A stretch of 63,037 bases of DNA, filler included. It is 5 parts of 5 records of this genome, joined end to end, with 100 filler letters (N's around TTAATTAATTAA, not from the genome) between each part and the next. Parts side by side here need not be neighbours in the genome. Positions count along the whole stretch, not along the records: positions 32,112 to 63,037 come from DRR723986_9216; 4 more parts are not named here. One strand, 5' to 3'. The translations under genes and the position numbers were made by a program. The stretch's first letter is position 1, and each line of letters opens with the position of its first letter. Below the pieces are notes generated by a model, which saw only the letters and a list, made by a program, of their open reading frames with translations, searched no databases and was not told the DNA's origin. Positions 23,052 through 61,608 of the stretch are shown piece by piece.

Positions 23052-23151
23052 NNNNNNNNNNNNNNNNNNNNNNNNNNNNNNNNNNNNNNNNNNNNTTAAT
23101 TAATTAANNNNNNNNNNNNNNNNNNNNNNNNNNNNNNNNNNNNNNNNNNNN
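23052..23151. other. Artificial contig spacer
   Basis: N block with TTAATTAATTAA. Confidence 0.99.
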
Positions 23152-31930: not shown

Positions 31931-32011
31931 GAGAGGTTGGCGCGGGCAGGCGCCTCGCCAACCTGGTCAGGACCGGAAGGTAGCAGCCACAACGAGCCCC
32001 GCTTGGGTCGA
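31931..32011 (+). ncRNA. ffs: Small signal recognition particle RNA (4.5S), 3'-truncated
   Basis: Helix-8 motif GGTCAGGACCGGAAGGTAGCAGCC. Confidence 0.9.
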
Positions 32012-32111
32012 NNNNNNNNNNNNNNNNNNNNNNNNNNNNNNNNNNNNNNNNNNNNTTAATTAATTAANNNNNNNNNNNNNNNNNNNNNNNNNNNNNNNNN
32101 NNNNNNNNNNN
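32012..32111. other. Artificial contig spacer
   Basis: N block with TTAATTAATTAA. Confidence 0.99.
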
Positions 32112-32200: not shown

Positions 32201-34147
32201 TTAGAGACATAAACTTAGTGCAGCGGAATGGGTGAGGGTAAAGATGAAAGCTGGGTCAGCGAAAAAGAAAAAAAATAATGTGAAAAAAAATGTAAATCCT
32301 AATACAATAGCATTTTGTTTGCTAATTTGTTCGTGCTGCGTTCATTCATCTTGTCCACGAGAGGAATGAAAATAAATGATTTTAACAAGACGTATCGAGT
32401 AAAATGCGCCAATAACGCTACAAAGAATTCCCATCAGAGCTAAAAAATACATGGATTCCTCAACAGCTGCTAAAAAAACATTTAATTTCCCGTAGAAACC
32501 TGCCAAAGGCGGTATTCCAGCGTTGGAGAAAAAAATAGCGACCAATGTCGCGGCCAGGATAGGATTGGCTTCCGCTAAGAAACGCAAATCACTGATGTAT
32601 TTCAGACTTGTGTCTCTTTTTGTTCCGGGTAGCTTCATTTTGTGGCCGTCATTCATGTTGGAGCCTGAAACACGAGTCCCACCAAAAGCGGGGGCCATAG
32701 TTGGTGTCACAATTCTTGCTCCACCCTCTTTTGGCAGTGGCTTCAATGAGGGCAGGTCAGAGAAGGCAGAGTCTGAGAGCGGGTTTCATAATGGATAACT
32801 GGCTTTTAAATGTCGGTGTCCCGCCTCGGCGAAGCCGGCATTCGGCGCCATTTTGTAAATGGAACCCCACGGGGCAATTGAGGAACGGAATGAAGAATTT
32901 GCAGCGACTTGCTCTCTTGCAAGGCTTGGCGTCTGAGCCGCGGACGCAAAGTGCGGATGAACTTCATGTCGCGGTGTAGCGAGGATAACAGCAAAAACGT
33001 TTATGATCATAAAAATGTACACAATGATATAAATTAAGAGAGATTCAACAGCTTCGATGGTTCCAGTTGCTAATCCGAGAAGCATGTATCCGATGTGCGC
33101 GATGGAACTGTAAGCAAATAAACGTTTTATTTTAGTCTGGTTGATTGCACCAAACGTTCCAATAAACATAGACAGAATGGAACAAATTGCTATAGGCTGT
33201 TGCCAAAGCTCGATAAAGTCATAGAAGGTGTAAAGACAAAGACGTAATAATAAAGCCAGGATAGCAATTTTAGGGGTTATTGCAAAAAAGGCTGTTACAG
33301 ATGTTGGAGCGCCCTCATAAACATCTGGAGCCCACATGTGAAAAGGCACAGCGCTGATTTTAAATAAAAATGCAACAAGTAAAAAGATTAACCCCACTTG
33401 TACGATAAGGGTGCTATCGTGTGACTGTTGAAAAAGCGAAACAGAATCTCACGGCAGAGCTGAACCATCTGCGGATGTAACAGGAGTGTACGAACAAGCG
33501 TTTTGTGATGTTGCACAAGAAAACAATTTTGTAAGTTCTTCAAAATTCGTAATACCTGTTAAACCGTAGATAATAGATTCACCAAAAAGCAGAAGTCCAG
33601 ACGAAAGCGCGCCTAAAATAAAGTATTTTAAACCCGCTTCTGTCGAAAACTCATTATCCCGGCGAAAAGCAGCGAGAACGTAAAAAGAAAGACTTTGTAA
33701 TTCAATTGCAAGATACATGCTGATGAGATCATAAGAAGACGTAATGAGTAACATACTCAACGTAGAAAAAAGTATTAAAATTGTGTACTCATAAGAGTAC
33801 ATTTTTTGATTTCGAAGATTGTCCAGAGAGATAAGGACAGATGCTAATGCACTTAATGCGACGATAGTTTTAACGACGAAAGAAAAGTCATCTGTAATAA
33901 GAACATTATGGAAAGCGACAACAGTTGCGTGTGGCTGGCAGATATTCCAGTTAACAAGAAGTAGAATTACGATAAATAAAGTTTGAATACCAAGTCAACC
34001 TGTCAAATTAATTAAAATGGGATATCTGTGGCGCGCAGATGGGTTATAAATAACAGCGTAAAGTAAGATACACATGATAGCTACCACAAAAAATATTTCG
34101 GGAAAAAATGCCTTGAAATGGTTTTGAAAAATGTCAATCTGATTCAT
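32201..34147 (-). CDS. nad2: NADH dehydrogenase subunit 2 (648 aa, with in-frame insertions)
   Basis: Four listed ORFs join in frame across TGA; STEAGLKYFILGA, FK...VPFHMWAPDVYEG, AGIPPLAGF; TAA at 32201-32203. Confidence 0.93.
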
Positions 34148-34399
34148 AACGGTATTAAGCGTGAATGGCCGAGGTTGGGGGCTTGACGGCGCGAAGGGGA
34201 AGCAAGTAGGGCACAATGGGACAAAAGAGGGCAGATAGCGGGATGGTGGCACAACAGGGGAATGTAAGGTTCTGCGACGACGGCTGCTGCGACGAACTTT
34301 GTTCAAGGAGGGGCGAACAGTCGGAACAGGATGCCAAAGTGCTAACCACCGAAAACAGAGGTTGTAAGGAAAAAACACAGCGAGGGATTGAACAAAAAG

Positions 34400-35636: not shown

Positions 35637-36941
35637 TTACGCAGACGGAGACACACTGAAGGTAGATAATAAGTTGAAAACTTGGTCTGTAGCTTTTAGA
35701 TTTTTTTTGGTTAGAATATCATATTTCACTGCGATTCTAATTAGCAAGAAAGATAAATTTTCAAGGTAAGAGGTTTTTGCTTCAGATTGGAAATTTCAGT
35801 ATGTTGTCATATGATCCAAGTTTTGAAGCATTTCTCTTCTGATTAAATATTCTTGACTTTCTAATTTTTGTTTCGCCTGTGCAGTGGAGTTTGTTCCTAA
35901 GAGAGAATTCTCCACAGTAGCAAATAAAACAAGAGAAAGGGTTGTAGTATTTATAGGGAAATTTTGTGGAGATGTTAAAAGATTTTTGTTTTTTAGTCCG
36001 AATAGCAGGTTAGGTACAACTTGATATTCATAGAAACGAATCTGTTTTGGAGTTATTCTTTCTCGGATACCGTTGAAAAGAACGATAACTTGAACTTCAC
36101 TTGACAGAGGTCTGTATTGTTGTTGCTTCAGCATTTCAGTAAGAGCGGCTCCTCTACGCAGTAATTCTTGTGTAGATTCGTCGAAACCGAAAGATGAGAA
36201 CGCTGCCATTTCTCTGTATAAAGCCAAATCCAATTTCAGGGTACCGGACATTTTTTTCATTGCTGCAATTTGAGCGGCAGAACCAACACGGCTAACGGAT
36301 AAACCAACATTAATAGCAGGACGTACACCTTGGTAGAAAAGGGCGGTCTCTAAGAAGATTTGTCCATCTGTAATAGAAATAACGTTTGTAGGAATATACG
36401 CAGAAACGTCACCTTCTTGGGTTTCGATTACAGGTAGAGCTGTTAAAGTCCCACCCGAACGATATTGCTCATCTTTTAATTTAGCGGCACGCTCCAACAA
36501 ACGAGAGTGCAGGTAGAAAACATCTCCTGGATAAGCCTCTCTACCAGGAGGTCTTCTCAATAATAGAGACATTTGTCGATACGCTACAGCTTGTTTACTT
36601 AAATCATCATAAACAACCAGAGCGTGCATAAAGTTATCTCTAAAATATTCTCCCATTGTACAACCTGCGAACGGTGCGATGAATTGCAGCGGAGCGGAAT
36701 CAGAGGCTGTCGCGGCAACAATAATAGAGTGACTCAAGCTATAGTATTTTTTTAACACTTTAACCAATTGCGCAACAGTTGATCTTTTTTGCCCAACACA
36801 AATATAAATACAAAATAATTTTTCTTCGTTTTTTCTGTTATCAGATTGAAACGGGCTCTTGACAACACTTTGGTTAATCATTGCGTCTACAGCAACAGCA
36901 GTTTTACCTGTTTGTCTATCACCAATAATCAATTCCCGTTG
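35637..36941 (-). CDS. atp1: ATP synthase alpha subunit, exon 2
   Basis: Starts [37 protein letters not shown]; reads through TGA at 35796 to TAA at 35637. Confidence 0.93.
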
Positions 36942-38277
36942 CGTTTTATCCCAACCCACCCTTCTGCTGTGGGCTCCCGACGTGTGCGCGTGTTTGTTGG
37001 TCATCGATGCTGGACCAGAAATAAGACAGCGGCAAAACTGGGCCCCAATTTGGGAGGGACAAAATTGGACTATATCTTTAGTTTAGATTTATATCTCTAA
37101 GCCATATCACGTATAACAAAACCTTTTTCACTCGTGTCAAGATTTTGTGTGTTTTTCTGCCAAATGAGCTTTTATGTCTTTTAACTCAAAATACTTTTTT
37201 AAAAGGTGTAGCCGACGTCGTTTTTGAGTACTTTTCAAGGGATATGACTGTAGAATGTTGATAAAAGCATGAACGCTCGCTTTTTCTACAAATCAGTTTC
37301 ATTTTGGATGCATTGCGTGTTGTTCGTGACACAAATATCCAAACTTGAAGTATTTCTGAAAAATTTCAACATTTTGTTTATATTTGTTTGTGAATTTAAT
37401 TCCTACTTGATTTGCACCTCTTGAACCCAGTAAGCGCTCTGCCTTACCATAGTTTCCTTTTAGATTATGTAAAGTTTTGTCTTTTATTGAGATGGATAAT
37501 ACAATTGTACCATCAGCATCGAACAAGCCGGCATAATATGAAGGGCTTAACGCTGTAAGGTCTACACAAGGTTTCGCGTCGATTCCATAAAACACACAAG
37601 CAGCTTTAAACTGTGCTCTTCGGATGGTATTCTGTAAAAGTCCGTTAATTTCGTGAAGAATTCGTACAACAACGTCCTTTTTCCTACTGCGTCAACGTAC
37701 GGCTTTTGCATTAGATCGCGCTCTAACAGAGCCACCGTAATACTTTTTTATTTCGTATAAAACGCTTTCATCCTCCAAAGCTGTTGTAATTTCCATCGAG
37801 ACATGATCTTTGTAGACCAGAATACAACCGTCACCGTCCATAAATCCAGCAAATCACTGTATTCAGATGTGTTTCTCGGGGGCAGTTTGTGGCGTCATAT
37901 TTGATATATTTTTCAAGCGAGTCAAAAATCTAAACTAGAAGGCGTGTAGTCTCTGAGGAACCTACTAATTAAGTTTATGCCACACATAGCGACAACAATG
38001 CGGGCTAACTTTGGTTTCCTGCTGATTGCCCCTCCTTTGGCTGGCAAGAGGAATGGTTTCTTTCGTGCGTTTTCCAAAGGGAGTAAATAATTTTAACGGA
38101 CGAGGGACACGGTCATCTTTACAACAAGAATGTGCCACTAATACGCCGTATATTTACTATATATGTTTTGTGCGTTTCTCCGGACACACACACCGCGGAA
38201 GAGAAACATATACGAGTTTCCAGCAAATAGCCTTCTGCATTTTGTGTACGCATTTACGAACACAAAAGGGCCAAACG
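36942..38277 (-). mobile_element. Group I intron (IB-like) in atp1
   Basis: Splits IGRG|QRE; exon ends in U and intron ends in G; core motifs P TTGCTGGAAA (~38222), Q AATCAGCAGG (~38022), R TCAGAGACTACA (~37950), S AAGATATAGTCC (~37072). Confidence 0.93.
37089..37898 (-). CDS. Double-motif LAGLIDADG homing endonuclease/maturase (269 aa)
   Basis: With UGA=Trp: WFAGFMDGDGCI and YYAGLFDADGTI; lies between intron elements R and S. Confidence 0.9.
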
Positions 38278-38844
38278 ACCACGGCCAATTGGTACTAGAC
38301 TGTCAATAGCTTTAAGTCCAGTGATTACGGGCTCGTACACGGACTGTCTAGGGATAATACCTGGAGCTTTAATATCAATCGGTTTGAAGTCAGTTAGCTG
38401 TGCAGCTTCACCACCGTCTAAGAAAGTACCCAGTGGATCAACAACGCGTGACAAAAGTTCTTTACCTACTGGCACACTTAACAGTTGCCCGGTACATTTA
38501 ACGATATCATTTTCCTTAATTTCTCTATCGTTACCAAAAACAACAACACCAACTGTTTCTTTATCCAAGTTAAGTGCCATTCCTTTTTGCCCAGAAGGTG
38601 AAAACTCCACCATTTCTCCAGATTGTATTTTGTATAGTCCAGCTACATTTGCAATACCATCCCCGACGTTTATAACACGTCCTCTATAGTTATAGCTATT
38701 GTATTTTTCTAGAGATGTTTGTATAATTTTTTTCTTAAATAAATTTAAATGTACAATTTCACTCAAATGGTTTGATTTTCTACAAAAACAAAGCATCGCC
38801 TGTGTGAAATTTTTTGTTCCAACTGTTGCATAAGTATGAGACAT
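38278..38844 (-). CDS. atp1: ATP synthase alpha subunit, exon 1 (start uncertain)
   Basis: [43 protein letters not shown]. Confidence 0.92.
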
Positions 38845-40012
38845 AGTTTAGATCCCCAACTATCAAACTTTGTCGATCCCCTTGAAGCAGGCAAAAAGGG
38901 GAGCGAAAGACGAACCGGACATGGGGCGTATTCCAGCCGTCTTGTAAAATTTGCTCGTTCTCCTGCGTGCGCGGACGAAGTTGGGCAGAACTGAATTTAT
39001 AAACAGAATGGACAGGAACACCAACTTCGTCGAGGTGTGTTGAACAACTCCGCCTTCTGCCAGCGTCTTCTTCTTCTTGCAAGGACGACGACGAGGGGAA
39101 GAACCCAAAACCCAAAAAAGAAGGGCAATCGCGAACCGCCATCGCAACGAAAAAGGGCGGCGGAAGGCGCGTCCAGAGAAGCACGAGTTTTTATTTTTTT
39201 TTTTGTCTGAAATTTCCGGTCCGTGCCAGTTGTATGCATGAACTTGATCCGAGTCTGAAGCTGTTGTTGTTTCGACATTTCCGTGACTGTCGTCGAAGCA
39301 AACGAGGATTCGGAAGGGCAAAGACTGGGAAAGTGGGCTGAATGCTCCGTTCAGTTGAGACAACCAAGGCGGGACACAATCGCGGTTTCCTTTTGCTTTG
39401 GAAATTTGCGCGCGAGAACGAAGACGTAGACCCGCGAAAGTGGGGGCTCGGTGGCCCGCAACGGTTTTGTAGGGTTTCGGGCTTCGAAGGCAAAAGGAGC
39501 GGGTGTCCAATCGAAGATTTCATTCATTTACAAAAAAGAGGATGCTCGACCTCCAGCGGAAATGGCGGCTGCATCGACCTTCAGATGCGTCGACGAATTC
39601 AAACAAGGTCGGGCGTATTGAACTCGAACAAGTGTCGAACCTAAATTAGAACAGCATCTGACGAATAGGCGGCCTTTAGCCTGCCCCCGAAGGTGGGAAC
39701 GAGAGACACCGGACGAACTCATCTCTGCAGAAGCAACACCGTCTTTTGTTCGTAAAATTGTCGTCGCCTTGGTGGAAACCAAAAGCGAAAAAAATTCCTT
39801 TAGCAAGTATGGCTCTAGCGTGGGGCTTAGGCGTTTATGGCAAAGTTTGACTGCTCGGAACGTGGAAAAACCGGCATCGTCGCAGAAGGCTGTCATCAGG
39901 AGGGACGAAAGCCAGTCGCGAGAAGACACGCAGGCGAAAGCTGAAGAGATGCCCTCTGGCACTGGACAAGCAAAAAAGTTCAACGACGGATGAACCTGTG
40001 TTTCTTCGGGCA

Positions 40013-41822: not shown

Positions 41823-42278
<456 letters not shown>

Positions 42279-42531: not shown

Positions 42532-45500
42532 TTATAGTGTTTTCTTTTTCGCGAAGGCTTTTGCTAACGTTTGAGTGTGTACGGACCTCGAAGAAGCAGA
42601 GGTCGAAGAAATGCGTCGTGTTCCAAGAAGACTCAAAACATTAATTGTGTTTTTTCGACCTAAATTAAGCCAAATCTTAAAACCCCAAGTCCCATTTCGA
42701 GTTTTTTGTGTGACTTGAGCATAATCCATGTTTGTCCGAAGAGTGTTGAATGGGGTGCTTCCGACAAGCATTTTAAAAGAAGCAGCTTTCTTTGCACCAT
42801 AAGCACGGCCAGCGAACCTAAAAGCAACACCTCTGTGGTTGTTCTTTTTTTTTCGTATACCGTATGCGCCGCTGCCTTTTGAAGGACTTACGGCGTTAGG
42901 GAGAGAGGTTTCTTGCATTTTGGCATCGAAACGATCCTGGTCAAAGAACGGGGATAGAGGGCCGTTGGGTTTTTTTGTTCCGTCTCCGATTGCAAGATGC
43001 TGGTCTATGAAATAAGAACTCACAGACGTCGTCTCCGCAGCAGAAGAGGCGGAAGAAGTCGAAGCGACAAGTATTCTGGAAGCAATGTTTTTCAACTGTT
43101 GAAATTTATTCTTGGCGCCTCGATTCTTCTTTAAAAAGGCAATAACAAATTTAGATAGGTTTTGTACGAGAAAAGATGCATTATACGACTTTGAGTGGTG
43201 ATGTTTAATTATAATTCCAAATTGAGGCGATTCCGAAAAATCTTGAAATGCACGTGCGCTTTCTCGTGCGCGAGATCGAACAGAGTCCCCAGTGGCTTCT
43301 GCCGACAAAAAAAAATGCCGGCCATTTTCTTGAACTTGATGTTTTGAACTCTTACGGAACGGTACAGAAAGATGCAAACTTGAACGCGAAAGAACGTTTC
43401 GTGATGCTGTGGCGGTTCCGACTCCGCCTGGAGAGACAAACGGCAGTGACGACAAGGTGGGCCTAAGTTGCGCGCCACCTTCAAGAACAGAGTCTCCACG
43501 AAAAGCTAGAGGATATGTGCCTCAATTTAAACTCGGACATGGCGCGTAGATATTTTTGTTCATTGCCTGAACACCGTTTTTGCTTCGAGACCAACATCTC
43601 GTTCGTGGTTTTGGTGACGAAGAACTGCGTTCCGCGGTGGTTACGATGGTGCCTAAGGGCCGTACGGCACCGCCACCAAAATCCGTGGCAACATGGGCAG
43701 ATTTTGTCTTTGGTGCCAACACCTCCTGAGGTTGTTGTTTTGCTATTGGTTCAGACACAAAAAAAGCTGTCGTTAACGCTGAAGGCGAAGCATGTGCCGC
43801 AGCGTTGATGTTTGCTTTTCGAGATGCGTGGCAAAGCAGCGGTGTTGCCTCTTGCAACAAAAAGGGAATGTGCTGCTTTGGAGACTGCAAGCGCAAGATG
43901 TCTGCGAGTTCTCATTTTCTTCCGGGATCAGAATACGCTTTTGAGGTCATAGCTGGCTGCGTATTGATACCGCCGAAAATATGCAGTCGTAGGCGAATTC
44001 CGGCAAGGTGAAATCTTTCAGCACCGGCTTTGATCCTTTTTTTTTCAAGGTCTCCACACGACGACAACAAAGGTGTGGGTTTTGCTTCGACACCTTTGCC
44101 AAAAACCACAAGCATGCGCATTCGCGGACGTGGGCTTGAAGAACAACCACGCCCAAGAATTCTCTGCAACGTGTGGCGACTTGCTTTTCTCGGCTTGGTT
44201 ATGTATGCGGTGCGTTGTGTCTGCTTAGGAGAAAAAACAGTTGAAGAAAGTCGGATCAAGTGTTGGGTTGTGGTTTGACGTGGCAGAAGCTGACCAGGAG
44301 AGTTTGTTTCACTTCGCTGTTGGTTCGGAGAAGGTTCGTGTGTCTTAGCAAAGCGTTGTTGCAGAAGCATGGTACAAAAGGCAGCTCGATCCGGATGTTT
44401 TCGTCCTTTAGGAACACCCACACGTGTGTGTATGTCTATAGACAGTGTATTTCGAGATTTCTTAATAAAATATTGACGAGCTCCGCCAAGGCTCACAAGC
44501 TTCTTGCGTCGCCGGAGCCCTTGCGGGCTAGAGTGAAATCGATCGCGATTTCCTTTTGCTGTGTTTTTTTGAGATGCTGTTTTTGCAGCGCTTTCGGCGG
44601 TTTGGTGTGCAGAGATGTGCGTGTCCGAAGCATTCTTTTGGGTTCCCTTTGGTTCTGGATTTAGGCCTGCGGTTTTCGCGACGGCGAGTTTGTTATTTGA
44701 AACAACAAGACGGAAAAAGATTGGAGATGTTTTTCTTCCCAGAGACATTCGGGGACTTTTCCGAATGCTTTGAATAACGAAATTGCCGGAGAGCGTGTTG
44801 GCCCCAAAGATTTTGTCTGAATGAACGTCAGCGAAAACAAACGGATGTGGATAGATGGGGTCTGTGAGCAGACGTGGACCCTCGTCGTGATGATCCCAAT
44901 AGGTTCGGTTATAAGAACCTTCGGTGGGAGTGACGGTTTTGTTTATGGGGCTCACTGAATCATTTAAGGTGTCGAGCATAGCGGGCCGGTTCCACTCATA
45001 AAGATAATATAGGTACGTTAATAAATTAAGATTTTCTAACCCTTTTTGAAGAGGCACTCAAGATAAAACGTCGGGGCTGCTTGGTGTTGCTTTTTTTTTC
45101 GCTTCGCCCTTTTCTGCTGACACGGCGGGGGCGTAGTCGTTGTTGTTGGTGGCGGGGACGTTTTTGTAAACGTTAAGATTCCGCGAGAGTGCACAAAAAA
45201 TTTCAAGTGTATGTTGAACATAAAGGGTTTGGTGGAACAAGAACGTTGGAGTGTTAGGTTCAGACACTCCTTCGGCTTCGAGTTCAAGGTCCTGGAACAC
45301 ACCAGCAGCTCCGGCTTGCGCACTGGGCGCGTCGTCGAGATAAAGGGGGCGTTGTCTCGGGAAAAGTGTCCGTCCTGCAGGTGTTCTTACGAACGGAACA
45401 TTTTTTGCTTCGCCTTCGAGTGTGTGAGCATTTGTTGTACCACCAGCAGAAATGCCCTCTCCTGCGTCGACGACTCCGGGAAAAAAAGTCGGAGGTCGAA

Positions 45501-47598
45501 GAACAGAGGAGGTGTCTGGCTGATAGGTACGAGGTTTTGTGCCCGATATGGCGAACTCGGAGAATATTCCAAGCGTGCCCTCTTTTGCTTTGGGGTTTTT
45601 GACAAAACCACCAAAACAAATATCTTCCAATTTGCGTCATGTGACGCTTCGAGAATCCCAGCGTGATCCGTTAGCAGAAGACGGCACGGTGTTATGAGCC
45701 ATGATCCTTTTGTAAATACAAGCATACAGATCTAAAGGGTTATCAAGAACTAAGTTAGTGCCCTTATGTGACAAGCATAACAAATTCGCTTGAGCTATGG
45801 AATAACCCAAATCATTAACTCGTGGACCTTTATCAAACTTTGTATAAATCGCATTAGAAAGCGACTTGATTACTGTATTTAGAATAAAATGTTTGTATGC
45901 CTTGTTCCGCTTTTTTTTTGCATGTTTGTTCGTCATAGTCTTCTCGCACACTGAGGCGTAGCAATTTTTGCTTCGCCATTGCTCTTGTTCTCCCATTTTA
46001 AACAAAAAACGTCGTCATATGGCGAGGCTCAAAAGTTTTCTTCTTCAGCCTCAAAGAGGGAACCAACCTTTCGCGGCAAACGAGGATAACGCAGACGTTG
46101 GAACAATTCTGGGACTTTGTTTTTTGGGCTTTGTTTCAATTTCGCCGGAAGGCGCAAATCTGACGTGGCCATCAGCAATTGCGGTGCCTTCACGGCCTGC
46201 CAGAACCGGAAGAATATTTTCCATTCACGAGCTAGCAAGACCATCAAAGACAAGCTTTTGTGCGTACGTTAACGCGTCCCGTGATGAAGAAGGCAGGACC
46301 TGCGGGTTTTTTGCATTGCGCCCAGCATTTTGTGGTTGCGGATCTAGCAGAACAAGACGTCGCAGAAGCAGAGCCATCATCAGCGAAAAAGCTTTAGTTT
46401 TTGCATAGTATAAATTTTTCTTCGCAAGCGTCCGGTGAATACCCGATTTGTATTTAATTCAGTAGAGCTTGCTCAGAAAGTCTGTTACTTCTCTCATGTC
46501 AATTTCGGGGCTTCATAGCTTAAGTGTACGTGGAAGAGCTGGTGTTCGTTCTCACACACGTTCTTCTTTGTTGGCGCGCACAAGAAAAGGGTGGGCCTGC
46601 GGGTTTGTATCGCGCGTGCGTTTGCGATTGTGAAGGCGCATAAGCCGAAGCCTCATGCTCAGGGGCATCTCTAACAAAGATGCAGCGGGCGGGAATTGGG
46701 CCGCTTCGCGGCGCTGCTTGATTATTGGATGGGGCCCCATTGCTTTTTTCTTCGAGTTGACTAGACCAATTGTTGTAACACCACCGGCTGCGCTTTCAGC
46801 TTCTTCCACGAACGGATCAAAAGCTGGAAATGCGCCTGGCGTGTGTTTGAACTCGTGAAGGTATGTTTTGCGTTGTTTTCGCCGACAATAGTTGCGTCTT
46901 CGTGTGTGCATAAACGCAGCATGCTTTGTGCAAGAGTCAGCACCAGACGGTTGTGATACAACAAATGGAGCAGTTTTTCATGCAAACTCAAGAATCGTTT
47001 TGTTGATGCTGTTAACATTTTTTCTTAAAACATACAGTTTTTTCATAAGAAACAATATCAACTTAATGTCGAGTTGAAAAAATCCGTTGTGCTTGTGCTT
47101 GTTCTTCGCCGTCGGCTTGGTCTCGCTCTTGTTTTTTTTGCTGTCTCTTCGAGAACAAAGCAAATCGAAGGCGCAACAAAACGTGCTGGTTGTGTGGGTC
47201 GATCAACAAGCTCAATTTTCCGCTTGCCGAACGCGGGCCAAAATTGTTCGACCCTTTGTGGCTCCGGTTGCAGCTGCGGTGTCTGTTTTTGTTGTTGTCG
47301 CAGAACTTGTGGAGCTTAAGTTCGCAAAAGTTTCGGGCGGTTTATGTGCCAGAGTCGCTTTTGCGTTGTCTTCAAAGTCGGCGGATTGCTGTCCACCGTT
47401 GTGAGCCATCGTTGGTGCCCGGAGTTTTGTGTAAACAATGTCTAAATATGTACGTGCTAGCAGATCTTGGTGCAAATTTTGGAAATAATTGTTTGCACGT
47501 GCTCCGATAGCGCCAGAATTTTTATAAGGGTATCAATCAGACTGTCAAGATTGATTTAGTCCCAAACGAAGAAGAATTGGACTCGTTTTTTGTCCCAT
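42532..47598 (-). CDS. rps3: Giant ribosomal protein S3 (about 1688 aa)
   Basis: N-terminus MGQKTSPILLRLGLNQSWQSDWY; C-terminal domain RGV..RFAGR...GSTPFNTLRTNMDYA...TRNGTWGFKIWL; eight listed ORFs share one frame and the gaps, traced by hand, contain only TGA. Confidence 0.88.
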
Positions 47599-48001
47599 GT
47601 TGTGTTCTGTTTGTTTTTTGTGTGAACGTTGTGGATGGGCGGGATTATCTTAATTATAGTTCCAGTTGTGTCTGTGCTTGTGGTTGGTGTCAGCTGCCGG
47701 CTGCTTTTGCTCTATAGACGTCCTCCTCCTCCTAAAAAAAAAAAGCATTGCGGGGCCCCATCTTTGACACATACAAAGCATTTTCCCAAATCCGGGGTTG
47801 TAAGTTTGGAACACAGTTTTGATTTACGACGAATGGAGTTGAAAACCGTCGGATAAGTTGTTGATGCTCGCGAAAAAAAATGCATAGACCAAGTTTACTT
47901 CGCGGGTCGAGGGAGAGCGTTCGCCCGCAGGGTTTTTCAATTCAAAACAACCCTACGGGGGGTATGGCTGGCAAAAACAACAGGGCCTAAGGCGGCAGCC
48001 C

Positions 48002-48433
48002 TTATTCTCATTCTAAAGCTCCTTTTTTTCATTCGTAAATGAAGCCTACCGTCAAAATGACTAAAAAGACAAACATGGATCAAAATGCGTAGCAAGTGAG
48101 TCTACCCAATGTAATAGCTCACGGAAACAAAAAACTTACTTCTAGATCAAAGATTATGAATAAAATAGCTACAAGGTAAAATCGCACATCGAACTGATTT
48201 CTGGCGTCCTCGAAAGGATTAAATCCACATTCGTATGCGGAGATTTTCTCTTTATCAATTGATCGAGAAGAAAAGAAATAGGACAGACCGAAGATGAGAC
48301 AAGAAATCGCTGCACTAATTGCCAAAAAAATCAAGATTAAGGACCAATTTGTGAGCAAATGGTCCGAAGATAAAAGGTAAGTTTTACCGGATGGCAAGAG
48401 ATATTTTTGAATCGGGAAAGGATTCATCTGCAT
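48002..48433 (-). CDS. nad3: NADH dehydrogenase subunit 3 (start uncertain)
   Basis: [38 protein letters not shown]. Confidence 0.95.
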
Positions 48434-48668
48434 TACACGTGATCAGCGGGCACAAAAGCAAAAAAACGGGGAAACCTTCGAAGCGCGGCCTATGTTGTGT
48501 GCGTGCCTTGAGTTCTTCGAGCCGGAAACGGGCACATCTCGGAGACGCTCGCACAAGGGAGGGAACAAGGTTGTGACCACGCTGTACGCATTCCCCTTAC
48601 ACGAAGGGGCGGTTGGTACACCGGAGCGTCAACATCGAAGGTTCAACACATCCCACAAACGGAGGGGA

Positions 48669-48740
48669 TAACGGAAGACGGACTTGAACCGCCACATCTG
48701 GATCATGAGACCAGTAAGCTTACCTTTACTTCATTCCGTG
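48669..48740 (-). tRNA. trnM: tRNA-Met(CAU), probably initiator
   Basis: Anticodon loop CTCATGA, C1:U72 mismatch, A11-U24 pair, T-loop TTCAAGT. Confidence 0.85.
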
Positions 48741-51765: not shown

Positions 51766-52220
51766 TTTTCGGATTCTTCTTTTTCTCCACCGGATAGCTC
51801 GCACAAAAGGCGCCTAACGTTTAAGCGGTCGGTAACAGGTACGGCACAGGCAAGGTCCAAAACCTCGAAGCGTTGGGATGGTTTATGATTCGCCTGTAAC
51901 CAAGGAACCGCTGTTGTCGTCGCCTCCGAAGGATAGGAGTTGGTCGAAGACGAAGGCGGAGGCAAAAGCCGCTGGCTTCGACGACATTGCTTGTCCTGAC
52001 CCCGAAGGCAGGCATTTTCCGGAATTCCATCGAACTTGACTACCTGCAACTTGCGTCTCTTGCTCCGCCCTTCGGCTCGTTTTTGTTTTCGCCGGCTGGC
52101 CTGCAAACGTAAACCGGTCGTGCACACTAAGGGCGATGTTTCCGCGTTATCCTTTTGTTCAGGCCTGCTCTGTCTTTTTAAAGAAAAGACGCGGACTTGA
52201 AAGAAAACAAAGACTCTTGC

Positions 52221-52706
52221 TTACAAAATGTGGGCCGCGCCAGTGGCCAAGGTGCCATTGGCAGGGGGTTTATCAAGAGATGCGGCGGAGCTGTTGTACG
52301 TAATAAATTTGGTTCTCATCGGTAATTTTTTACTTGCCTTTTTTAAGAGTTCTTTCAATGCATCCGCCGGAATAGCACCCGCCACCTCAAACAGAATTTG
52401 CCCAGGTTTCACAGGGCAAACCCAAAATTGAACACTCCCCTTTCCTTTACCCATTCTTGTTTTTGTGGGTTTGCCACTTATAGGTTTGTAGGGGAATGTA
52501 CGTATAAAGACACGTCCAAATTTACGGGTGCGTCGAACAAGCACACGACGAAAAGCTTCCATCTGAGAAGCCTTCATGTTCATACCTTCAAGCGCTTTTA
52601 AACCATAGCAACCAAACGATAACCGGTGAGTTCTTGTTTGTAAGTTTTTTGTATCTCTACTTTTTCTTTGACTTTTTCTATACTTTGGATTTGCTGGTCG
52701 TTCCAT
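52221..52706 (-). CDS. rpl16: Ribosomal protein L16
   Basis: P...KYRK.Q, FG.YGLKALE, TRMGKGKG, VKPGQILFE, KLP. Confidence 0.93.
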   Translation of the reverse strand: MERPANPKYRKSQRKSRDTKNLQTRTHRLSFGCYGLKALEGMNMKASQMEAFRRVLVRRTRKFGRVFIRTFPYKPISGKPTKTRMGKGKGSVQFWVCPVKPGQILFEVAGAIPADALKELLKKASKKLPMRTKFITYNSSAASLDKPPANGTLATGAAHIL

Positions 52707-53106
52707 GTTGCTGTGAATTTCTGCGATCGGATTCCGTTTGGACTTGGTGGAGCTGTTTTTGTGAAACAAGACCTATGAAAATGCACGCCCGAAAGGTATC
52801 GCCGAGAAGCGTACCGTTGGGTTGTGTAGAGGATATCTTGCGACGATGCGCGTGAGCATCGTTGTGGTTACGACGATTTGCTGCGCACCTCCACGAACAA
52901 GTGGCTGCCTTCGAGCTGCTGGAGAGCCGTGCCTTGTCATCTTGTCGCGCGGGGCGTTTCCCAAGTGACACATGCACTCCGTTCCAGACACAGAACAAAG
53001 GGTCTGCAACAGCTGTGGTTCGCCAATCCGCAAAGCGAAAATCAAGGACGGCAAAAGATAATTTGTTTTGTTTTCTTTAAAAGGTATTCTTTGTGAGGAA
53101 GATGGG

Positions 53107-53166
53107 GCCCCGCTAACGTAAGAGCCCCTGCTGGTACAAATTGCAGCAGCGGGTGCTTACGGGGGC
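53107..53166. other. Long GC-rich stem-loop immediately 3' of rps4
   Basis: Nested pairings GCCCC/GGGGC, CGTAAG/CTTACG, GCCC/GGGT, CTGCTG/CAGCAG. Confidence 0.7.
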
Positions 53167-53174
53167 ACATTTGT

Positions 53175-55586
53175 CTATTTATAGTGTTGAAGTATTAACT
53201 GAAAAAATTCTAATTCCACTTCTAAAAAATTGATTTTTGTATACATTCTATCATAAAAGCTTTTTTTAGTTTGTTGCTGCAAGCGGACTCACTTACAGAT
53301 TTTTGTACCATATGCGATAGAGCCGTAAGAGCGAAGAGTTCTTCTTTGTTGACGGCGAAAAAGTGTTGGGTTTGATTCCATAGTCCGTAAAACATATAAG
53401 GGTACAGACTTTTGGCTTGTGTTTGTTGTTGCAGACGGCTCAGACACAACCGAAGGGGCAAACGTCGCAGAAGCTGGCGATTGTTTTGCGCTGGCCTGCG
53501 TGCTCCCGTTTGCAGAGCTTTCAAACGCTCCTGGCTCTTGTTGCGTACATAATCGTTTGAATCTTAAAAAATTTCGTTGTTCTCTTTCAAAGGCTTTTCT
53601 CCCGGACGCAAGAAGGGTTTGTGCATCAAATCGATGACGAGCTTGTGGCGTGGCCGCAATGTTGGAACCGAATCGAAGAAAATTTGGTTTTGTTTGCATT
53701 CAGGAAGACACTCGCAATAAAGATACCAAGGGCCAAAGAACGTATATGCTTTGATTATATCCAACAGAGTCAAAAACTGGAAGGTGCACCTGCAAAACAT
53801 GAGGTTCTTGTGGAACAACGGTTGCTGGGACGCTCCCGCTTCGGCTACTTGCAATGTGAGACCCTTGAACAGTTGAAGTCGCAGCTGTCGCAACACCAGA
53901 AACTTGTGTGTCTCCCGCATATTGGTTCACAAACGCGTGCGTGCCGGACACGGTTCATCTTGGAATTAAATGCATATTGCGATAAACCATATAAAAAATT
54001 TCTGTAAATCGTTTTATCTTTAAGGCTTCTATGTAATCGAACAGCAGTTTTTCCGTTTGTGCAGCATCACGTTCTTGCTTCGCCTCTGAGTTTGCAACTT
54101 GCGCGGTTGCGGGACTTGATCAAAGCACGCTCAAGTTTTCTTTTGGAAATTTTCGTAAGAGCATGGTTCTTTTATGATTCCCTAGAAAATGAGCACGCTC
54201 GTATCTTGAGGACACCAACTCTCTTTCAACATGTCCTCCCCTTACGACGTTTGCGGGCGCAACGCTCTTTAGATAACCCGATAAACAAAGTTTATCGGCC
54301 AAGTCTATACGCGCACCGGGTCAAGTTACAGTTTTACCGTTAACTTTAACGTGTCCATGACCAATAAGCTGTCGGACTTGTAATGCGGAAAACGAAGCAG
54401 CCGGGGATTTGACTTGATATCGGGAAGATGCTAGCATCCGCTTTTGCTTGAATTTATTTTCGCCATGCCGCAGCTCGGTGGGCTGTTTACCGGCAGCGGG
54501 TGCAGGCGTAGCAGAAACAGCATCGGAATGCAAGACTCGCAATAAGGTACTGTCAAGTCGCTGTTCTAAAGTTGAAATCAAAGATTTAACGACTTCATTT
54601 TTGTTCCTTGTTCCGCCTTCCAGCTGTGTCCGGCGTCCATGTGTTCCCAACAGGAGAGAGGTTGGTTTGTTCATACACACACTTAAACGGCCGAGTTGAC
54701 GCCGCCGAGGTGTTTGACTTTCCGCTACTATATTTCTTAAAGCTTTTGCACTTAGATGTCTATAATATGCTCTCAAGAGCCTGCGGCTCAAAAGTCCCGC
54801 TAATGCAGGGCGGAAAGACATAGTATGATATTTTTGTGAGGCTGTGGGACGCTGCGGTTGAGACACAGTCGCCGTTGCAGAACCCTTTTTTTTGGGGGGG
54901 GCGAAGAAAAAAGCGCCGCTATCGCGGGTATACCGTCGTGGAAACTTACAAATTATATTGAAGAGGTATGAATTTATTTTATATTTCTTCTTTCTTTCCG
55001 TTCGTTCAGTTCGGAACTTGAGCCCGTTGCCATGTTGTTTCGGTCTCCGTAAGAGCATTGCTTCAGTCGAAGGCGCGTCTTCTCCGATGAGTGCAGGAGG
55101 CGCTGGTTCAGACACACTTGATTCTGAAACAAAATACTGCTGACGTCCGCGTAAAGGAAGGACTCTTTCTTTCTTTAAATAATATTCACGTTTTACTCGG
55201 TTATAACTAACTCCCGAAAGAGCGTAAAGTTTTTTTTTTTGTGAGGTGCCAGAACATAATGTCCTTCTGTACGTGCTTCGCCTCGAAAGGCGAAGCATGC
55301 TAAATAGTTTTCTATAGAATTTTTGTTTTCCTCTGATCCCGCTGGCGGCGACAAATCTTTTTCCCTGATGTCTTGTTGTGTTGAAACTTTTCGTTTCAAC
55401 AGACCCAGCGTGGGTCGTAGAAGAGTCGCATAAGTAGCGCATGCTCGGACCAGATCCGAGCACGCGAAGCGTTGGAAGGTGGAAACTTCCGGGCACAATT
55501 GCGGGACCATTTACAGAGAATTTAACGTTTTGCTGTGTGTTTGTCCTTGTTTTTTTTCTTCCTTGATGTAGATGGTATTGGTTCAT
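53175..55586 (-). CDS. rps4: Expanded ribosomal protein S4 (about 803 aa; start uncertain)
   Basis: LRAYY..L, LEQRLDSTLLR, RQLIGHGHVKVNGK; frame traced through TGA codons to TAG at 53175-53177. Confidence 0.85.
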
Positions 55587-55946
55587 CACAAGAATTGAAG
55601 AGTTGAACCCATTGTTTTGGCTTAACCTTGGGACATTGGTTCAGCACACCTCAGCAGGCATACCGTGCTTGTGCCTGCATTTTTTGGATCCGCAGCTTTG
55701 CGTCGTAGAAGCGCTGAAATGTCGTCGTCCCACAAAGCACGCACAAGAGGACAAAGCTCCGAGCATCAGCACCACGAGGCCAAACACCAACAAAGGGGCG
55801 CTCAGCGCTTGGGGTTAAATGTTGAACGTTTCGGAAATTTGCAACAGATGAGCGCGTTGGACCAACAGAAGTCCTGAGCTACGCCGCGTTAGGTCGCCCT
55901 TGGCGTACGGAGTTTGTCTCAAAAACAACAGACAAGCCCACGGCCT

Positions 55947-57251
55947 TTATCCACGAGACCTGTTGTGTTTTGCTTTGTCCTTCGTCCTTGTTTTTTTTCG
56001 GGCGGGAGCAATTCGAGCATAGCTTGTTGGTTTTCCTTTTGTTAACTTTCCTCACGGGCTAACGGGGTGTTTACCGCCTTTAGATCGACCTTCACCACCT
56101 CCGTGCGGGTGATCTATTGGATTCATCGCAACTCCACGAACTGTGGGTCTTTTATTTCGTCAACGATTTTGACCTGCTTTTCTCAATTTCAAATTTCGGT
56201 GCGACTCGTTTCCAATAGTTCCGATGGTCGCCATTGATTCACCAGACAAACTATAAACATGTCCGGAACTCAATCGAATTATGACATTCTCCTCTTTTCT
56301 TCGACGAGAACGTCCCGCGCTGTTATTGGCAGGATCCCCTGTTTGTGAAGCTGGGAATGGGAGAGACTGTGTGTTTGCTCGCCCATTGGGGCCGTCCGCC
56401 CTTTCCGATGCATTGTCCCGTTTAATGATCTTTGCAAAAGTTCCAGCAGCTCGAGCTAACTTGCCGCCTTGACCTGGTTTTAATTCGATATTATGTATCA
56501 ATGTGCCGACCGGGATTTTCCCCAAAGGTAGTGCATTTCCAGCTTTTATTTCGGCAAGTGGTCCTGCGGTAATGGTATCCCCGTATGATAAATGTTTTGG
56601 TGCTAGAATGTACGATAAAATTCCATTCTTGTAATTTACTAACGCAATTTCTGATGTTCTATTCGGGTCATATTCTATTCGTTTTATGATTCCCGGACAA
56701 TCTAAAAGTGAACGCTTAAAATCGATGATTCTATATAATTTTTTGTTTCCACCACCACGATGAAATGCTGTGATTCGACCTTGATTATTACGACCACCTG
56801 AGCGTAGCTTGCCACGTGTCAAACCGCGCACCTTTGTTTCTGCGAGTCCGGGAGCGACGGTTGTTGTTTTCCCGGCAACTGCGGCTTCGCCACCTTTGGT
56901 TGCTGCGTCTTGCTGGACGGTGGTTGCAATTGCGGCAACCTTGGCAGCTTTTGATGCGCCTCCGTCGCCTGCACAAAGAGACGAAAGTCAGCGTTTTGTG
57001 TGTAGCCTTAACCCCGATTCGTAGGACGGGCGGCAAAACTTGGATGTTTCTAAATTTGTTAGTTGAGACCGTCTTCAAATCCCACTGGGAATATTGATTG
57101 TCGTTGTGACACGTGTTGTTCTCGGATTTGTGCCTCATAGTGTACCCTTGACAATTTCATGTTGTCGTCGGCGTAGCAATTTCTGAAAGAAAAGAACAAT
57201 CAGCAAAAGAGCAGGTGAAACAGTGTTCATGGCTTCAGTTTTGGCAGGCAT
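55947..57251 (-). CDS. rpl2: Ribosomal protein L2 with N-terminal extension and internal insertion (start uncertain)
   Basis: [29 protein letters not shown]...[28 protein letters not shown] at 57251 has the same CGAAAATG context as rps12. Confidence 0.9.
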
Positions 57252-58122: not shown

Positions 58123-58668
58123 CTAAAGCATACGTTTAGACTGAGAAATAATTTTTTTGCCGCAATTTTTTGCTCTAAGATCTCTTGTGACAGGACCGAA
58201 GACACGAGAACCGATTGGGTTATTTTGACTATCAATTAATACAACATCATTGGTTTGAAAAATTAGAGAACCATGCTTGGCAGTTGTTGTTGTGCCGTCA
58301 CATGTTGTTATTCCCATTTTTCGTTTACCACTGCTTCGACCCCGAATTCTCTGTATCGAAGCAGCCTTTGTACCACTTTTTGTACGTATTATCAAAGCTT
58401 TATAAATTTGACCTTTTCGAATGCTACCTCCAGATGCTTTTCCTGTTGCTTTTTTTTTGAGTGCACCTCCTTTTGTGCTGGCACCAGAAGGTACTCTTAC
58501 ATTTGAATTTTTTCTGTCCAAACCAGCATTTAATTTAAGACTTTTAATGGATACAAGAATACAATCACCAATATACGCGAATTTAGATTTGTTTAATATT
58601 TTTATACATTTTACGGTTTTAGCTCCCGAATTATCAGCTACTCTTAAGATACTTTGTGGTTGAATCAT
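58123..58668 (-). CDS. rpl14: Ribosomal protein L14 with two basic insertions (181 aa)
   Basis: MIQ.QS.L.VADNSGAK, IGD.I.VS.K, PIGSRVFGPV.R.LR. Confidence 0.93.
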   Translation of the reverse strand: MIQPQSILRVADNSGAKTVKCIKILNKSKFAYIGDCILVSIKSLKLNAGLDRKNSNVRVPSGASTKGGALKKKATGKASGGSIRKGQIYKALIIRTKSGTKAASIQRIRGRSSGKRKMGITTCDGTTTTAKHGSLIFQTNDVVLIDSQNNPIGSRVFGPVTRDLRAKNCGKKIISQSKRML

Positions 58669-59239
58669 TTTGCGCGGTGGCGGTTCTGTGTTCAAAGGGC
58701 AGAAGACGCATCTCGTCTTCTTTGAAAACATTTTCCCGTTGGGTTCGAGCTTGTTTTGGCGGGCCGGGATAATGCAATGCTTCGCCCGGCGCTCGCGGTT
58801 TGTGTTTTGCGTGTGCTGTTGTTTGTGTTTGTGCTCGGGTTTGCTCGCGGATGTGCCGAAGGTCAACGAAAACCGCAGCATTTTGCTTGCATGGTTCGAC
58901 AAGAGTGTCTCCGAAGGCAGAACAGGGTTCCGCTCGACCAAGTCCGAAGACGTCGCAGGTTCGACACAAGTTCAACACAGGCTTGCACGGTACAGGCTGG
59001 CAAAGCGCGACGCAAAAAAAATCCCAATTCTTCGTGAACGAGTTTAGTCCCAAACGAAATGTTCTTGCCAGCCTTTTGGCTTCATTCCCCTCTTTCGGTG
59101 CAGAACAACATCCGTTCTTCTCGCGACATGACAAGCAAAGATCCTCTTTCGCGACCGAAACCACGTGGGCACTATTCCATATTCCCCATTTCCTCAAGGG
59201 AAGATGGAATGCCGAAGGGGAATAAATTCAACATAAGGC

Positions 59240-60670
59240 TTAGTGTAAATTAAAGGCATCATTTATGTAAATACATAACAACACTGAAAAAATGTAAGCT
59301 TGTAAAAACGCAATTGCAATTTCTAGGCCAGTTACTAGAAAAATAATCACACATGGTATCAAGAAAATACCTCAGAAAGAGACAGCTGCTCAAGCGAAAG
59401 TAGATAATATTTTTAAGAGGGTGTGACCGGACATTAAATTAGCAAATAGTCGAATAGATAAGCTTAATACACGGAACACGTAAGAAACTAACTCTATAAA
59501 TACTAATAAGGGTGCAAGAGCAAGCGGTGCACCAGGAGGAAAGAATAGACTTAAGAAGTGTCTACGGTTTTTCAAAATACCTAAAATATTAATCCCAATG
59601 AAGATGGCTAACGCAACAGAAAACGTTACAATCAAATGGCTTGTCACAGTAAAGCTATATGGAATCATTCCAAACAGATTACAGATTAATATAATCAAAA
59701 AAGTTGTAAAAATTAAAGGAAAATATTTGATACCTTTAGGTCCAGCATTTTCATTTACAACGCCAAGAATAATTTCATAGAGTATTTCTAAGATTGTTTG
59801 TCAATTATTCGTTGAAATCAGCGTCATAGATCCGCCCGCGTGCGGGCGCGACGAATCGGCAATGTTAGAACCGGATCCTCTTTTGCTGTGTGGAACCGCA
59901 GCAATGGCTGACGTCAAAAGAAACGTCGAAAGGATGAAACCAAGAGATAATCAAATTGTTGAAGTATTTAGGGAAAATATTAAATAAGAAAAATCTTTTG
60001 TGCTTAAATAAAATAAATGCTCTGTTGTGTTAGAATAAACCCACATCAAAGCCGCGGACGCGACTTCCGCCGCGGTTAGATAGGCGTAGACGAAGGCAAC
60101 GCCAATTGAGCTAGAAATTAAGGCAAGGTTTCCTCCCACAAACGCCGCGCGATAACCATCCCCTCCTTCGACGATAGGAGCAACGGCCCCTTCGTTGGTA
60201 AGCCCAGACCATATCTGCGAAAGACCAAAAACACTAGGCAAAAGAAGATAACAATCTGTAGAGTTTGAGTTTGAAACCGTTAGTTTCAGGTAAGCAGTAA
60301 ATCACGCATGGGTTAATAGACTCCAAAGCGGACCGTAAAGAAAATCAACAATTGCAAATACATGAACCGCGCCAGTTTCCATGAGGGGCATTTTGGATAC
60401 CCCAAGGGCCAACATTGCCGTCACAGGACCTGCGACACTCATTGCTGTCTGGATGGTCACTGTAAGGGCGCCGATTGCAATTCTAAAGATGGGCAGGTTT
60501 TCTGCCAAAGCGACAAAGATAGCCTGAAGCGCTGACGAAGGCATCTCATACAACGTGTACCAAACCAAGAATGATAGCCTTGCTGAGGCCACTTCAAAAT
60601 TGCTTATATTTGTTAGAGAAAAATCATATAAGGATAATACATTAAATTGCTCTAATGGCGAAATTATCAT
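59240..60670 (-). CDS. atp6: ATP synthase subunit a with large N-proximal insertion (about 476 aa)
   Basis: SPLEQF start, NNWQ, NLFGMIPYSFTVTSH, SLSIRLFAN.MSGH, ends DAFNLH*; three listed ORFs join in frame across TGA. Confidence 0.92.
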
Positions 60671-61608
60671 ATGCATTTTTTTGACGCCCAAGTCCGACTT
60701 TGTGGGTGGATAACGCCCGCCAGCGAGCGTTTTTCGTTTGCTAAGCCCGACGCGTGTGTTTTGCTTCGCGTTTTGGTTGTGCTTGTCACAAAAGCCTTCA
60801 CACTCTGACAAAAAGGCGAAGCAAAAAGCGCGCCCAAACAAACGTGTGCTGTACGCTGGCCGACTGTGCCCGAAGGACCTCCGGCAGATGAGGGGGCGGG
60901 CGCAGGCGATGGCGGCGCCCGCGGTGCCGCGTTGAAGAAAATATGTATGAACACGAACTGGACTCGTATCGCGGCGGTTGAACCAGAGTGGGCGCAGCAG
61001 AAGAAAGGTTCATGTTAGAACTGGAGGGAGCCGTGAGCGCCGTTGTGCGGATTCTGCACGGGATGTGTTTGGCTGGCCGTGAGGGTTTGTGCTTGTTGGC
61101 CCACGTTCTTACAAAGAACCAACAGCGAGCAAAAACACAAGCAGACCGGTGAAGCCAAATACGGCGGGGGGCGTAGTCGTTGTTGTTGGTGCAATTTAAC
61201 AGACAAAAGCATCACTTTTTGGGGCAGGGGGTTATGCTGGCGCCCTCGGTTCCGAGCCGGTGCTTTTTAACAGCCACCCCGGATTGACAGGACGAAAAAA
61301 AGTCATACGTTTCAGCCTTCCGAGAATGACAGTCGGGGCATGCTGGCAGTTTTGTGTTTATCCCCGTTTGAGCGTGTGTTTGAACTCGAAGCCGAAGGAG
61401 CACCAAGAAAACGTTTTCGGACACACCGGGCTTGTCCATTCTCTCTGCAAAATGCCGTCTTCAACGAGCTCTGATTGTCCGCGCCACTCTCTAAGCAGGC
61501 AAAAATTGCCTGCCAATTTCTGCCTTCGGCGGCGGGGTCGTACAAGTTGTTGATGATGGTGGCAACGTCCGCTGCCATGTCAAGCATTTTTGCTCGCACA
61601 AAATGGAT

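Follow-up and report, generated by a model that had tools for sequence, protein, structure and literature searches.

A 1688-codon mitochondrial rps3 (uS3m) gene in a single reading frame that uses TGA as a tryptophan codon

This report concerns a single open reading frame (ORF) of 1688 codons on the minus strand at 42532..47598 of a DNA stretch of 63,037 nucleotides, referred to here as the window, which is made up of five contigs separated by N...TTAATTAATTAA...N linkers. The frame opens with ATG at 47598 and closes with TAA at 42532-42534, and its 1688-residue product is named P0001. The evidence supports the assignment of 42532-47598 as mitochondrial rps3, encoding a diverged ribosomal protein uS3m in one frame in which TGA specifies tryptophan. 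Most likely, this is an intact mitochondrial uS3m gene in which the linkers between islands conserved in the family have grown in frame, giving one long polypeptide.

Translation of the region with genetic code table 4 yields 1688 residues followed by the terminal TAA. Tables 4 and 11 read 16 codons differently, every one of them TGA, and table 11 cuts the frame 16 times, by TGA alone. The remaining relevant codons are eight TGG, no TAG and a single TAA, the terminator. The five remaining frames of these 5067 nucleotides contain 36, 39, 34, 24 and 42 TAA or TAG codons, and in 2000 first-order Markov simulations the mean number of in-frame TAA or TAG codons was 33.7 and the minimum 17, compared with no internal ones observed. 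It is thus confirmed that the frame is open far beyond chance. A first-pass annotation, made from the letters alone, had proposed a single ORF interrupted only by TGA, and re-translation found no internal TAA or TAG. The eight ORFs it had placed in one frame correspond to the eight in-frame table 11 ORFs of at least 60 amino acids (aa); altogether, 46 table 11 ORFs with 50 aa or more overlap the region, and 10 are in the frame of the long ORF, including those eight. On the plus strand, an antisense ORF of 432 aa (43556-44854) contains 10 TGA codons under table 4 and probably arises as a side effect of codon bias on the sense strand.

The identity of the protein is established at its two ends. 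At E≤0.01 the protein matches 45 PDB sequences, and every one of them is named S3 or uS3. In two alignments with solved bacterial S3 chains from the PDB, aa 1-36 or 1-45 align with the S3 N-terminus and aa 1585-1649 align with S3 positions of about 142-206. TGA codons 18 (47545-47547) and 22 (47533-47535) encode the two tryptophans that the S3 N-terminal motif has in both chains. The family model TIGR01009 matches the whole protein with E 4.3e-16 and 59.3 bits in two stretches, the partial matches covering model positions 1-47 at the N-terminal end (E 1.3e-5) and 142-208 at the C-terminal end. When aligned with bacterial S3 by hhalign, the C-terminal end reaches 96% probability and the N-terminal end 67% (E 5e-5). 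In addition, the gene is set among mitochondrial genes and uses their genetic code. The S3 motifs that had been proposed for the two ends are recovered by the PDB alignments, and the identification as mitochondrial rps3 holds on the PDB, TIGR01009, PF00189 and gene-context evidence together.

The profile search that the first-pass annotation had suggested was successful for one of its two domains. PF00189 (Ribosomal_S3_C) scored 35.1 bits on the piece aa 1430-1688, above its gathering cut-off of 34.1, while KH_2 gave no match in the whole protein (E≤0.01) or in pieces of it (E≤10; E≤1). Alignment of the conserved middle blocks with bacterial S3 by hhalign gave probabilities of only 0.1-0.3%, and aa 940-1120 matched nothing in Pfam or NCBIfam at E≤10. 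The KH type-2 domain may be too diverged for detection, or it may have been lost. The island at aa 1036-1066 was considered as a KH core and dropped, with hhalign probabilities against bacterial S3 of 0.3% (alignment A2) and 0.1% (alignment A4). Structure predictions for the C-terminal module (alignment A1, 2 rows; mean pLDDT 34.4) and for the N-terminal 230 aa (alignment A3, 5 rows; mean pLDDT 43.6) were unusable.

A search with aa 1-1200 of P0001 among 1.84 billion representatives returned only 6 proteins, and word-indexed searches added 2 fragments, as well as 27 proteins for aa 1201-1688. All 36 of the proteins that were fetched (P0002-P0037) match P0001 by BLASTP at E≤1e-3, and their matches lie over 927 of its 1688 residues, namely aa 1-87, 144-209, 368-620, 927-1228 and 1442-1660. 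P0012 is a complete S3 of 545 aa, a single chain with both ends present, whereas P0014, on a contig of 5,561 bp, has 926 aa or more. For P0004 and P0005 alike, the longest contig listed is one and the same, with 17,366 bp. The exact P0001 protein is already present in NCBI nr, UniRef and the ESM Atlas. Its Atlas feature scores against expanded S3 clusters of Streptophyta, Chlorophyta and Prasinodermophyta are 0.86-0.88, under the 0.9 line. Scanning of genome contigs and metagenome contigs with P0001 found no relative, and the loci L001 and L002 from a scan with alignment A1 proved to be ordinary bacterial S3, L001 being a bacterial ribosomal operon with a 217-aa S3.

The ends of the relatives fit a shared genetic code. 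The predicted proteins of 18 of the 36 relatives break off immediately ahead of the conserved Trp 1638, and those of 2 others ahead of the next Trp; P0002 terminates in front of TGA-Trp 1229, and the first residue of P0005 directly follows TGA-Trp 847. Such cuts at conserved tryptophans are to be expected if standard-code gene callers took a tryptophan TGA for a stop. P0032 (252 aa; longest contig 94,865 bp) is a relative of the S3 C-terminal module in which conserved residues are replaced, including both tryptophans of the ending motif; possibly the mitochondrial gene was copied into the nucleus and is decaying there.

Comparison with these relatives gives the layout of the protein, all parts of which are encoded on the minus strand. 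The uS3 N-terminal segment, aa 1-59 (47422..47598), comprises the first strands and helix of the N-terminal domain; it is recognized by PDB, TIGR01009 and hhalign and is 47% identical to P0012 aa 1-49. It is followed by a weakly conserved island at aa 176-205 (46984..47073), which is common to P0008 and P0011 and marginal in P0012 (E 0.22); P0008 covers aa 144-209 with E 9e-10. A conserved island shared with P0012 and P0014 lies at aa 371-402 (46393..46488; 44% identity, E 2.5e-4). The block aa 419-620 (45739..46344) is homologous to P0004 and P0009 at 39-41% identity, its strongest islands being around aa 525-535 and 559-598. The block aa 848-1228 (43915..45057) is homologous to P0005 and P0010 (37-40%) and to P0002 (86-92%), and it includes the nearly invariant island at aa 1036-1066. 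The C-terminal module begins with aa 1459-1511 (43066..43224), which is 60-76% identical in relatives and is not reached by S3 profiles. This first half is separated by an inserted variable loop, aa 1512-1589 (42832..43065; 79 aa here and 12 aa in P0012), from the Ribosomal_S3_C core at aa 1590-1649 (42652..42831), which is found by PF00189, TIGR01009, PDB and hhalign. A basic, Ser/Thr-rich tail, aa 1650-1688 (42535..42651), completes the protein. P0001 has a net charge of +139, and aa 60-1458 contain 209 Lys and Arg residues versus 103 Asp and Glu residues.

P0012 is colinear with P0001 at aa 1-59, 371-402, 567-590, 1459-1511 and 1590-1649, with a further, marginal match at aa 176-205. The linkers between these islands measure 13, 18, 59, 180 and 12 aa in P0012 and 117, 166, 165, 869 and 79 aa in P0001, where the first two figures depend on the marginal match at aa 176-205. 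Every linker is longer in P0001, which is about three times the length of P0012, and the added length is distributed across five linkers or more. Even fragments with an overall identity of just 37-41% retain nearly invariant islands inside the middle. The colinear islands in P0012 and in the fragments therefore show that the family has a conserved scaffold whose linkers are expanded in P0001, and by this comparison the middle is a series of conserved islands and grown linkers, not a single foreign insert. The first-pass annotation had described a middle of about 1400 lineage-specific residues. The middle is indeed long; it is not purely lineage-specific, as its islands are shared and 927 of the 1688 residues of the protein are matched in relatives. 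The strong remodelling of the small subunit that this annotation went on to propose is conjectural. Only short two- or three-copy repeats were found, with no tandem repeat within rps3, and a repeat family or mobile element was rejected as the origin of the middle, since no such family builds it. Two repeats link the middle of rps3 to the interval between atp6 and nad5: a 25-nucleotide exact direct repeat (45127-45151 and 61167-61191) and a 21-nucleotide perfect inverted repeat (45267-45287 and 61380-61400).

Inside the middle region, aa 953-969 (44692..44742, minus strand) form a second, degenerate S3 N-terminal motif, which is 59% identical to P0012 aa 1-17 over 17 aa (E 0.027). The likeness spans only about 12 residues (36 nucleotides) and is partly kept in P0005; no wider self-similarity was found in DNA or protein, and Pfam, NCBIfam and hhalign profile searches give the motif no support. 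It may be the scar of an old partial duplication. A more far-reaching account would arrange the chains of 545, at least 926 and 1688 aa in a graded series within one family, grown in frame at several linkers simultaneously, regard the 1100-plus added residues as new structured RNA-binding modules of the mitoribosomal small subunit that assume functions of lost rRNA or separate accessory proteins, and treat aa 953-969 as the scar of the duplication with which growth started. We regard this account as doubtful.

The same motif also bears on the possibility that one ORF gives rise to several products. Here, N- and C-terminal polypeptides would be released by proteolysis or made by internal initiation, and the middle would be discarded or would form a separate protein. 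Split or multi-gene uS3m is known from Dictyostelium, ciliates and Tetrahymena, and the S3 N-terminal-like motif, with a Met 3 residues upstream of it, offers a candidate internal start. However, no stop separates the N- and C-terminal parts, the complete relative P0012 is likewise a single chain with both ends, the islands are spread over the whole middle so that no discardable spacer is apparent, and the candidate start is a motif that no profile recognizes. We consider multiple products unlikely and favor the intact gene translated as a whole.

Several properties of the middle (aa 61-1444) are those of coding sequence. The GC content at the three codon positions follows GC1>GC2>GC3, as it does in the core genes. 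Relative synonymous codon usage in the middle correlates with that of the core genes at 0.53 in frame, versus 0.01 and 0.15 out of frame, and the ratio of TGA to TGG is 14:6 in the middle versus 28:7 in the core genes. Further evidence comes from public sequencing runs, which are represented here by Logan contigs instead of raw reads, and such contigs show neither level nor ends. Contigs of the DNA metagenome X1 are 99-100% identical to the gene in 8 listed pieces, with no gaps; X1 is possibly the source run of the window and is then not independent. Contigs of X2/X3 and of X4, which belong to two metatranscriptome studies, are 90-95% identical and therefore come from a related strain. Among the 40 listed of its 166 substitutions, codon positions 3, 1 and 2 account for 21, 10 and 9, respectively, and 23 are synonymous and 17 are not (13 versus 10 in the middle alone). 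Of 12 listed rows of insertions and deletions (62 in total), 7 are in the rps3 frame, with net changes of -6, +9 (3+1+5 within 13 nucleotides), -12 and +6, and 5 are in the upstream spacer, with changes of -1, -3, -2, -1 and -9. Two replacement joints have net changes of -33 and -117. The in-frame codon usage, the share of synonymous changes and the listed net changes in multiples of three within the gene support the view, also taken in the first-pass annotation, that selection would be keeping the frame open.

The contigs from the RNA libraries also address whether hidden introns, inteins or other elements could lie in the middle, being removed from RNA or protein and having remained in frame by chance. 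Such elements do exist in this genome, as atp1 carries a group I intron with a LAGLIDADG ORF, and the linkers are absent or short in P0012. The RNA-library contigs, however, are colinear with the DNA over 42612-44182, 44618-45045, 45341-46669 and 46805-47884, and over these stretches they have no intron-like skip, the only skips being short in-frame replacements. No contig of any of the four runs covers the bin 45105-45291, and X2 has none in the bins 44357-45291; these gaps in cover carry no weight as a finding. At E≤1, Rfam matches no group I or group II intron anywhere in 42532-47598, yet it does give a weak match to the atp1 intron. LAGLIDADG, GIY-YIG, reverse-transcriptase and Hint families are lacking in the whole protein at E≤0.01 and in four middle pieces at E≤1, where Pfam returned only a chance-level TPP_enzyme_M match (E 0.22). 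An unselected intron of such length would be expected to contain about 30 TAA or TAG codons, and the codon usage of the middle is in frame. Intervening sequences are thus very improbable here. Least credible of all is a non-working gene (a chimera from assembly, mitochondrial DNA copied into the nucleus, or a pseudogene in decay), which could appeal to the origin of the contig in a mixed assembly with bacterial contigs, to the fact that none of the listed contigs of any run spans the whole gene, and to the degenerate look of the relative P0032, but which is countered by zero in-frame stops across 5 kb, by the gapless X1 pieces (with the reservation that X1 is possibly the source), by the retention of the frame in the related strain and by the intact neighboring genes.

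For the intact gene with linkers grown in frame, the following picture can be proposed. The host would be a eukaryote whose mitochondria read TGA as Trp. The normal core of uS3 would be formed by residues 1-59 and the C-terminal stretches aa 1459-1511 and 1590-1649, and the family-specific islands would probably supply the remaining contacts of the N-domain. uS3 is described as belonging to the mRNA entry channel of the small subunit (PMC7337963; PMC7326499). Between the islands, each linker would have lengthened without loss of frame, bringing a protein of about 545 aa, the size of the relative, up to 1688 aa. The whole frame would be translated as one basic polypeptide, which would be incorporated into the ribosome, and the basic expanded linkers would loop out from the ribosome surface as added protein mass. 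The islands would be under purifying selection and the linkers under weak selection, chiefly for an open frame. Other genes on the contig are also oversized, and the expansion is genome-wide and not special to rps3. This, together with a GC content of the extra parts above that of the core genes, suggests that mutation in this genome tends to add sequence in frame and that selection accepts the additions as long as no stop intervenes.

A number of observations weigh against this proposal. The GC3 of the middle (0.42) is nearer to that of spacers (0.47-0.51) than to that of core genes (0.31), which fits weak constraint on much of the middle. As a whole, the protein falls under the curated cut-offs, with 31.7 versus 34.1 bits for PF00189 and 59.3 versus 114.5 bits for TIGR01009; as the latter is an equivalog score, P0001 is taken as a diverged organellar homolog and not as an equivalog of bacterial type. 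The KH part of uS3 (TIGR01009 positions 48-141) was not located by any profile, and 761 of the 1688 residues have no detected homolog among the 36 fetched proteins. The RNA-library contigs come from a related strain, and DNA is possible in such libraries. Two joints of the type "opposite strands" in X3 contigs, 46951/47073 and 47621/47726, are unexplained. Finally, the full-length protein is a prediction from nucleotide sequence.

The mitochondrial part of the window is the fifth contig only (32112-63037). Runs of N at 8923-9022, 17277-17376, 23052-23151 and 32012-32111 separate the contigs. Contigs 1-4 (window 1-32011) have a GC content of 53-73% compared to 39-48% in the fifth. They are bacterial, with MutS, a malic enzyme/PTA fusion, an HD-domain signalling protein, solute-binding proteins (SBP_bac_5) and a signal recognition particle (SRP) RNA, the last at 31943-32010. 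The mitochondrial contig of a eukaryote is thus found within a mixed or bacterial assembly.

The gene order of the fifth contig is nad2, rps11, atp1, nad7, trnC, atp9, the long ORF, nad3, trnM, trnR, cox3, nad1, rps4, rpl2, trnL, rpl14, atp6 and nad5. Every gene, including four for tRNAs (trnC, trnM, trnR and trnL), lies on the minus strand and reads through TGA; 13 further mitochondrial protein genes share their strand with rps3, and their Pfam matches are full-length only with TGA as Trp. The upstream neighbor of rps3 is nad3 (48002..48706, minus strand), whose conserved part is aa 137-233 of the ORF and from which the rps3 ATG is separated by a spacer of 403 nucleotides. The downstream neighbor is atp9 (41823..42245, minus strand), with ATP-synt_C at aa 76-137. 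The atp1 gene (35637-38844, minus strand) is in two pieces, one with ATP-synt_ab_N (ORF 38254-38844) and one with the nucleotide-binding and C-terminal domains (ORF 35637-37004). Between them are the ORF for a LAGLIDADG endonuclease (37089-37925, minus strand) and a weak Rfam match to a group I intron (37875-38268; 22.6 bits, E 0.08).

Oversized genes on this contig include rps4, rpl2, rpl14, atp6 and nad2, all on the minus strand. The rps4 ORF (53175-55793) encodes 872 aa with an S4 match of just 30 aa (aa 471-500). In rpl2 (55947-57251; 434 aa), a gap separates L2_N from the best L2_C stretch. The matches of rpl14 (58123-58941; 272 aa) and nad2 (32201-34378; 725 aa) are split, and the domain of atp6 (59240-60841; 533 aa) is confined to aa 344-527. 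N-terminal extensions of these genes may be overestimates, as their starts are predicted ORF starts. The extra parts have a higher GC content than the core genes. Two stretches have no recognized gene: 51805-53174 (1.37 kb, between nad1 and rps4) and 38860-40012 (upstream of nad7), the latter consisting of a 248-aa ORF without a Pfam family (38860-39606) and a spacer. An (AACG)n tandem repeat of 8.8 copies (63004-63037) occupies the last nucleotides of the window; it falls in the frame of nad5, which continues beyond the window's end. The best PDB matches of nad7 and cox3 are entries whose codes we take to be those of plant complexes, narrowly ahead of codes that we take to be animal; these matches are too coarse for naming the lineage.

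This gene illustrates the extent to which a universally conserved ribosomal protein can lengthen with both of its functional ends still in one chain. Shorter relatives, one of 545 aa and one of at least 926 aa, make the steps of growth traceable. This has a bearing on the debate over whether the protein mass of mitoribosomes arises by neutral accretion or as compensation for rRNA loss. There are also practical consequences. Under the standard code, gene callers break up rps3 and its relatives into pieces labelled "hypothetical protein" (of the 36 fetched relatives, 20 end just before a conserved Trp), and mitochondrial contigs can hide in bacterial assemblies or bins.

Several known systems can be compared with this gene. 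Its closest relatives are P0012 and the fragments among P0002-P0037, which belong to the same family and have in common the N-terminus, the middle islands and the C-terminal module (60-76% identity). They differ in that the linkers of P0012 are much shorter than those of P0001, and the other relatives are mostly fragments. In the literature, no description was found of a single-ORF mitochondrial rps3 of such size, which does not show that none exists.

Dictyostelium, which the first-pass annotation had cited as a precedent, does provide one. Its mitochondrial rps3 is divided in two, and each part is joined to an ORF whose function is unknown, giving ORF425 and ORF1740 (PMC1950548). The total size is of the same order (PMC1950548; PMC3318907). 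However, rps3 of Dictyostelium consists of two ORFs, whereas the P0001 gene is one uninterrupted frame with no TAA or TAG between the parts. The search for similarity to the middle of P0001 found close relatives only (6 matches for aa 1-1200 in 1.84 billion representatives). UGA termination codons are reportedly present in Dictyostelium mitochondrial DNA, as indicated by the title of a paper by Iwamoto. Going by that title, UGA means termination there, whereas TGA is Trp here.

In land plants, S3 domains at the N- and C-termini of mitochondrial uS3m flank a region described as being of unknown function (PMC3318907). The plant chains in PDB entries 6xyw_Bb, 9evs_B and 9gyt_B are 554-556 aa long, which is near the size of P0012, whose N-terminus matches them (E about 1e-9), and P0001 is three times longer. 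A shared middle domain is not shown, since only aa 1-50 of P0012 match the plant chains and none of these is among the 45 PDB matches of P0001. A chloroplast uS3c of 712 aa (PDB 28jw_c), presumably from Chlamydomonas, is similar to P0001 in being an organelle-encoded S3 with a large in-frame insertion ahead of the S3_C domain, and this C-terminal domain aligns at chain positions 642-708. It differs in belonging to another organelle and in having under half the size of P0001.

Other lineages have fragmented or interrupted the protein. Ciliates have rps3 split into rps3_a and rps3_b, and Tetrahymena uS3m is assembled from three genes (PMC3318907; PMC7326499). These cases show that the N- and C-domains of uS3 are only loosely linked in the evolution of mitochondria (PMC3318907; PMC7326499). 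Ciliates fragment uS3 into separate genes; P0001 represents the opposite case, in which a single chain has grown. In one eustigmatophyte, rps3 has an in-frame stop within a poorly conserved middle region (PMC4824035). Taken together, the Dictyostelium, plant, chloroplast and ciliate cases mean that very long organellar S3 proteins whose middle is unexplained are already known as a kind. P0001 stands out for its unsplit chain of 1688 aa, for growth at several linkers and for having shorter relatives available. The P0001 gene is therefore a real and extreme case of a known trend and not a new kind of gene.

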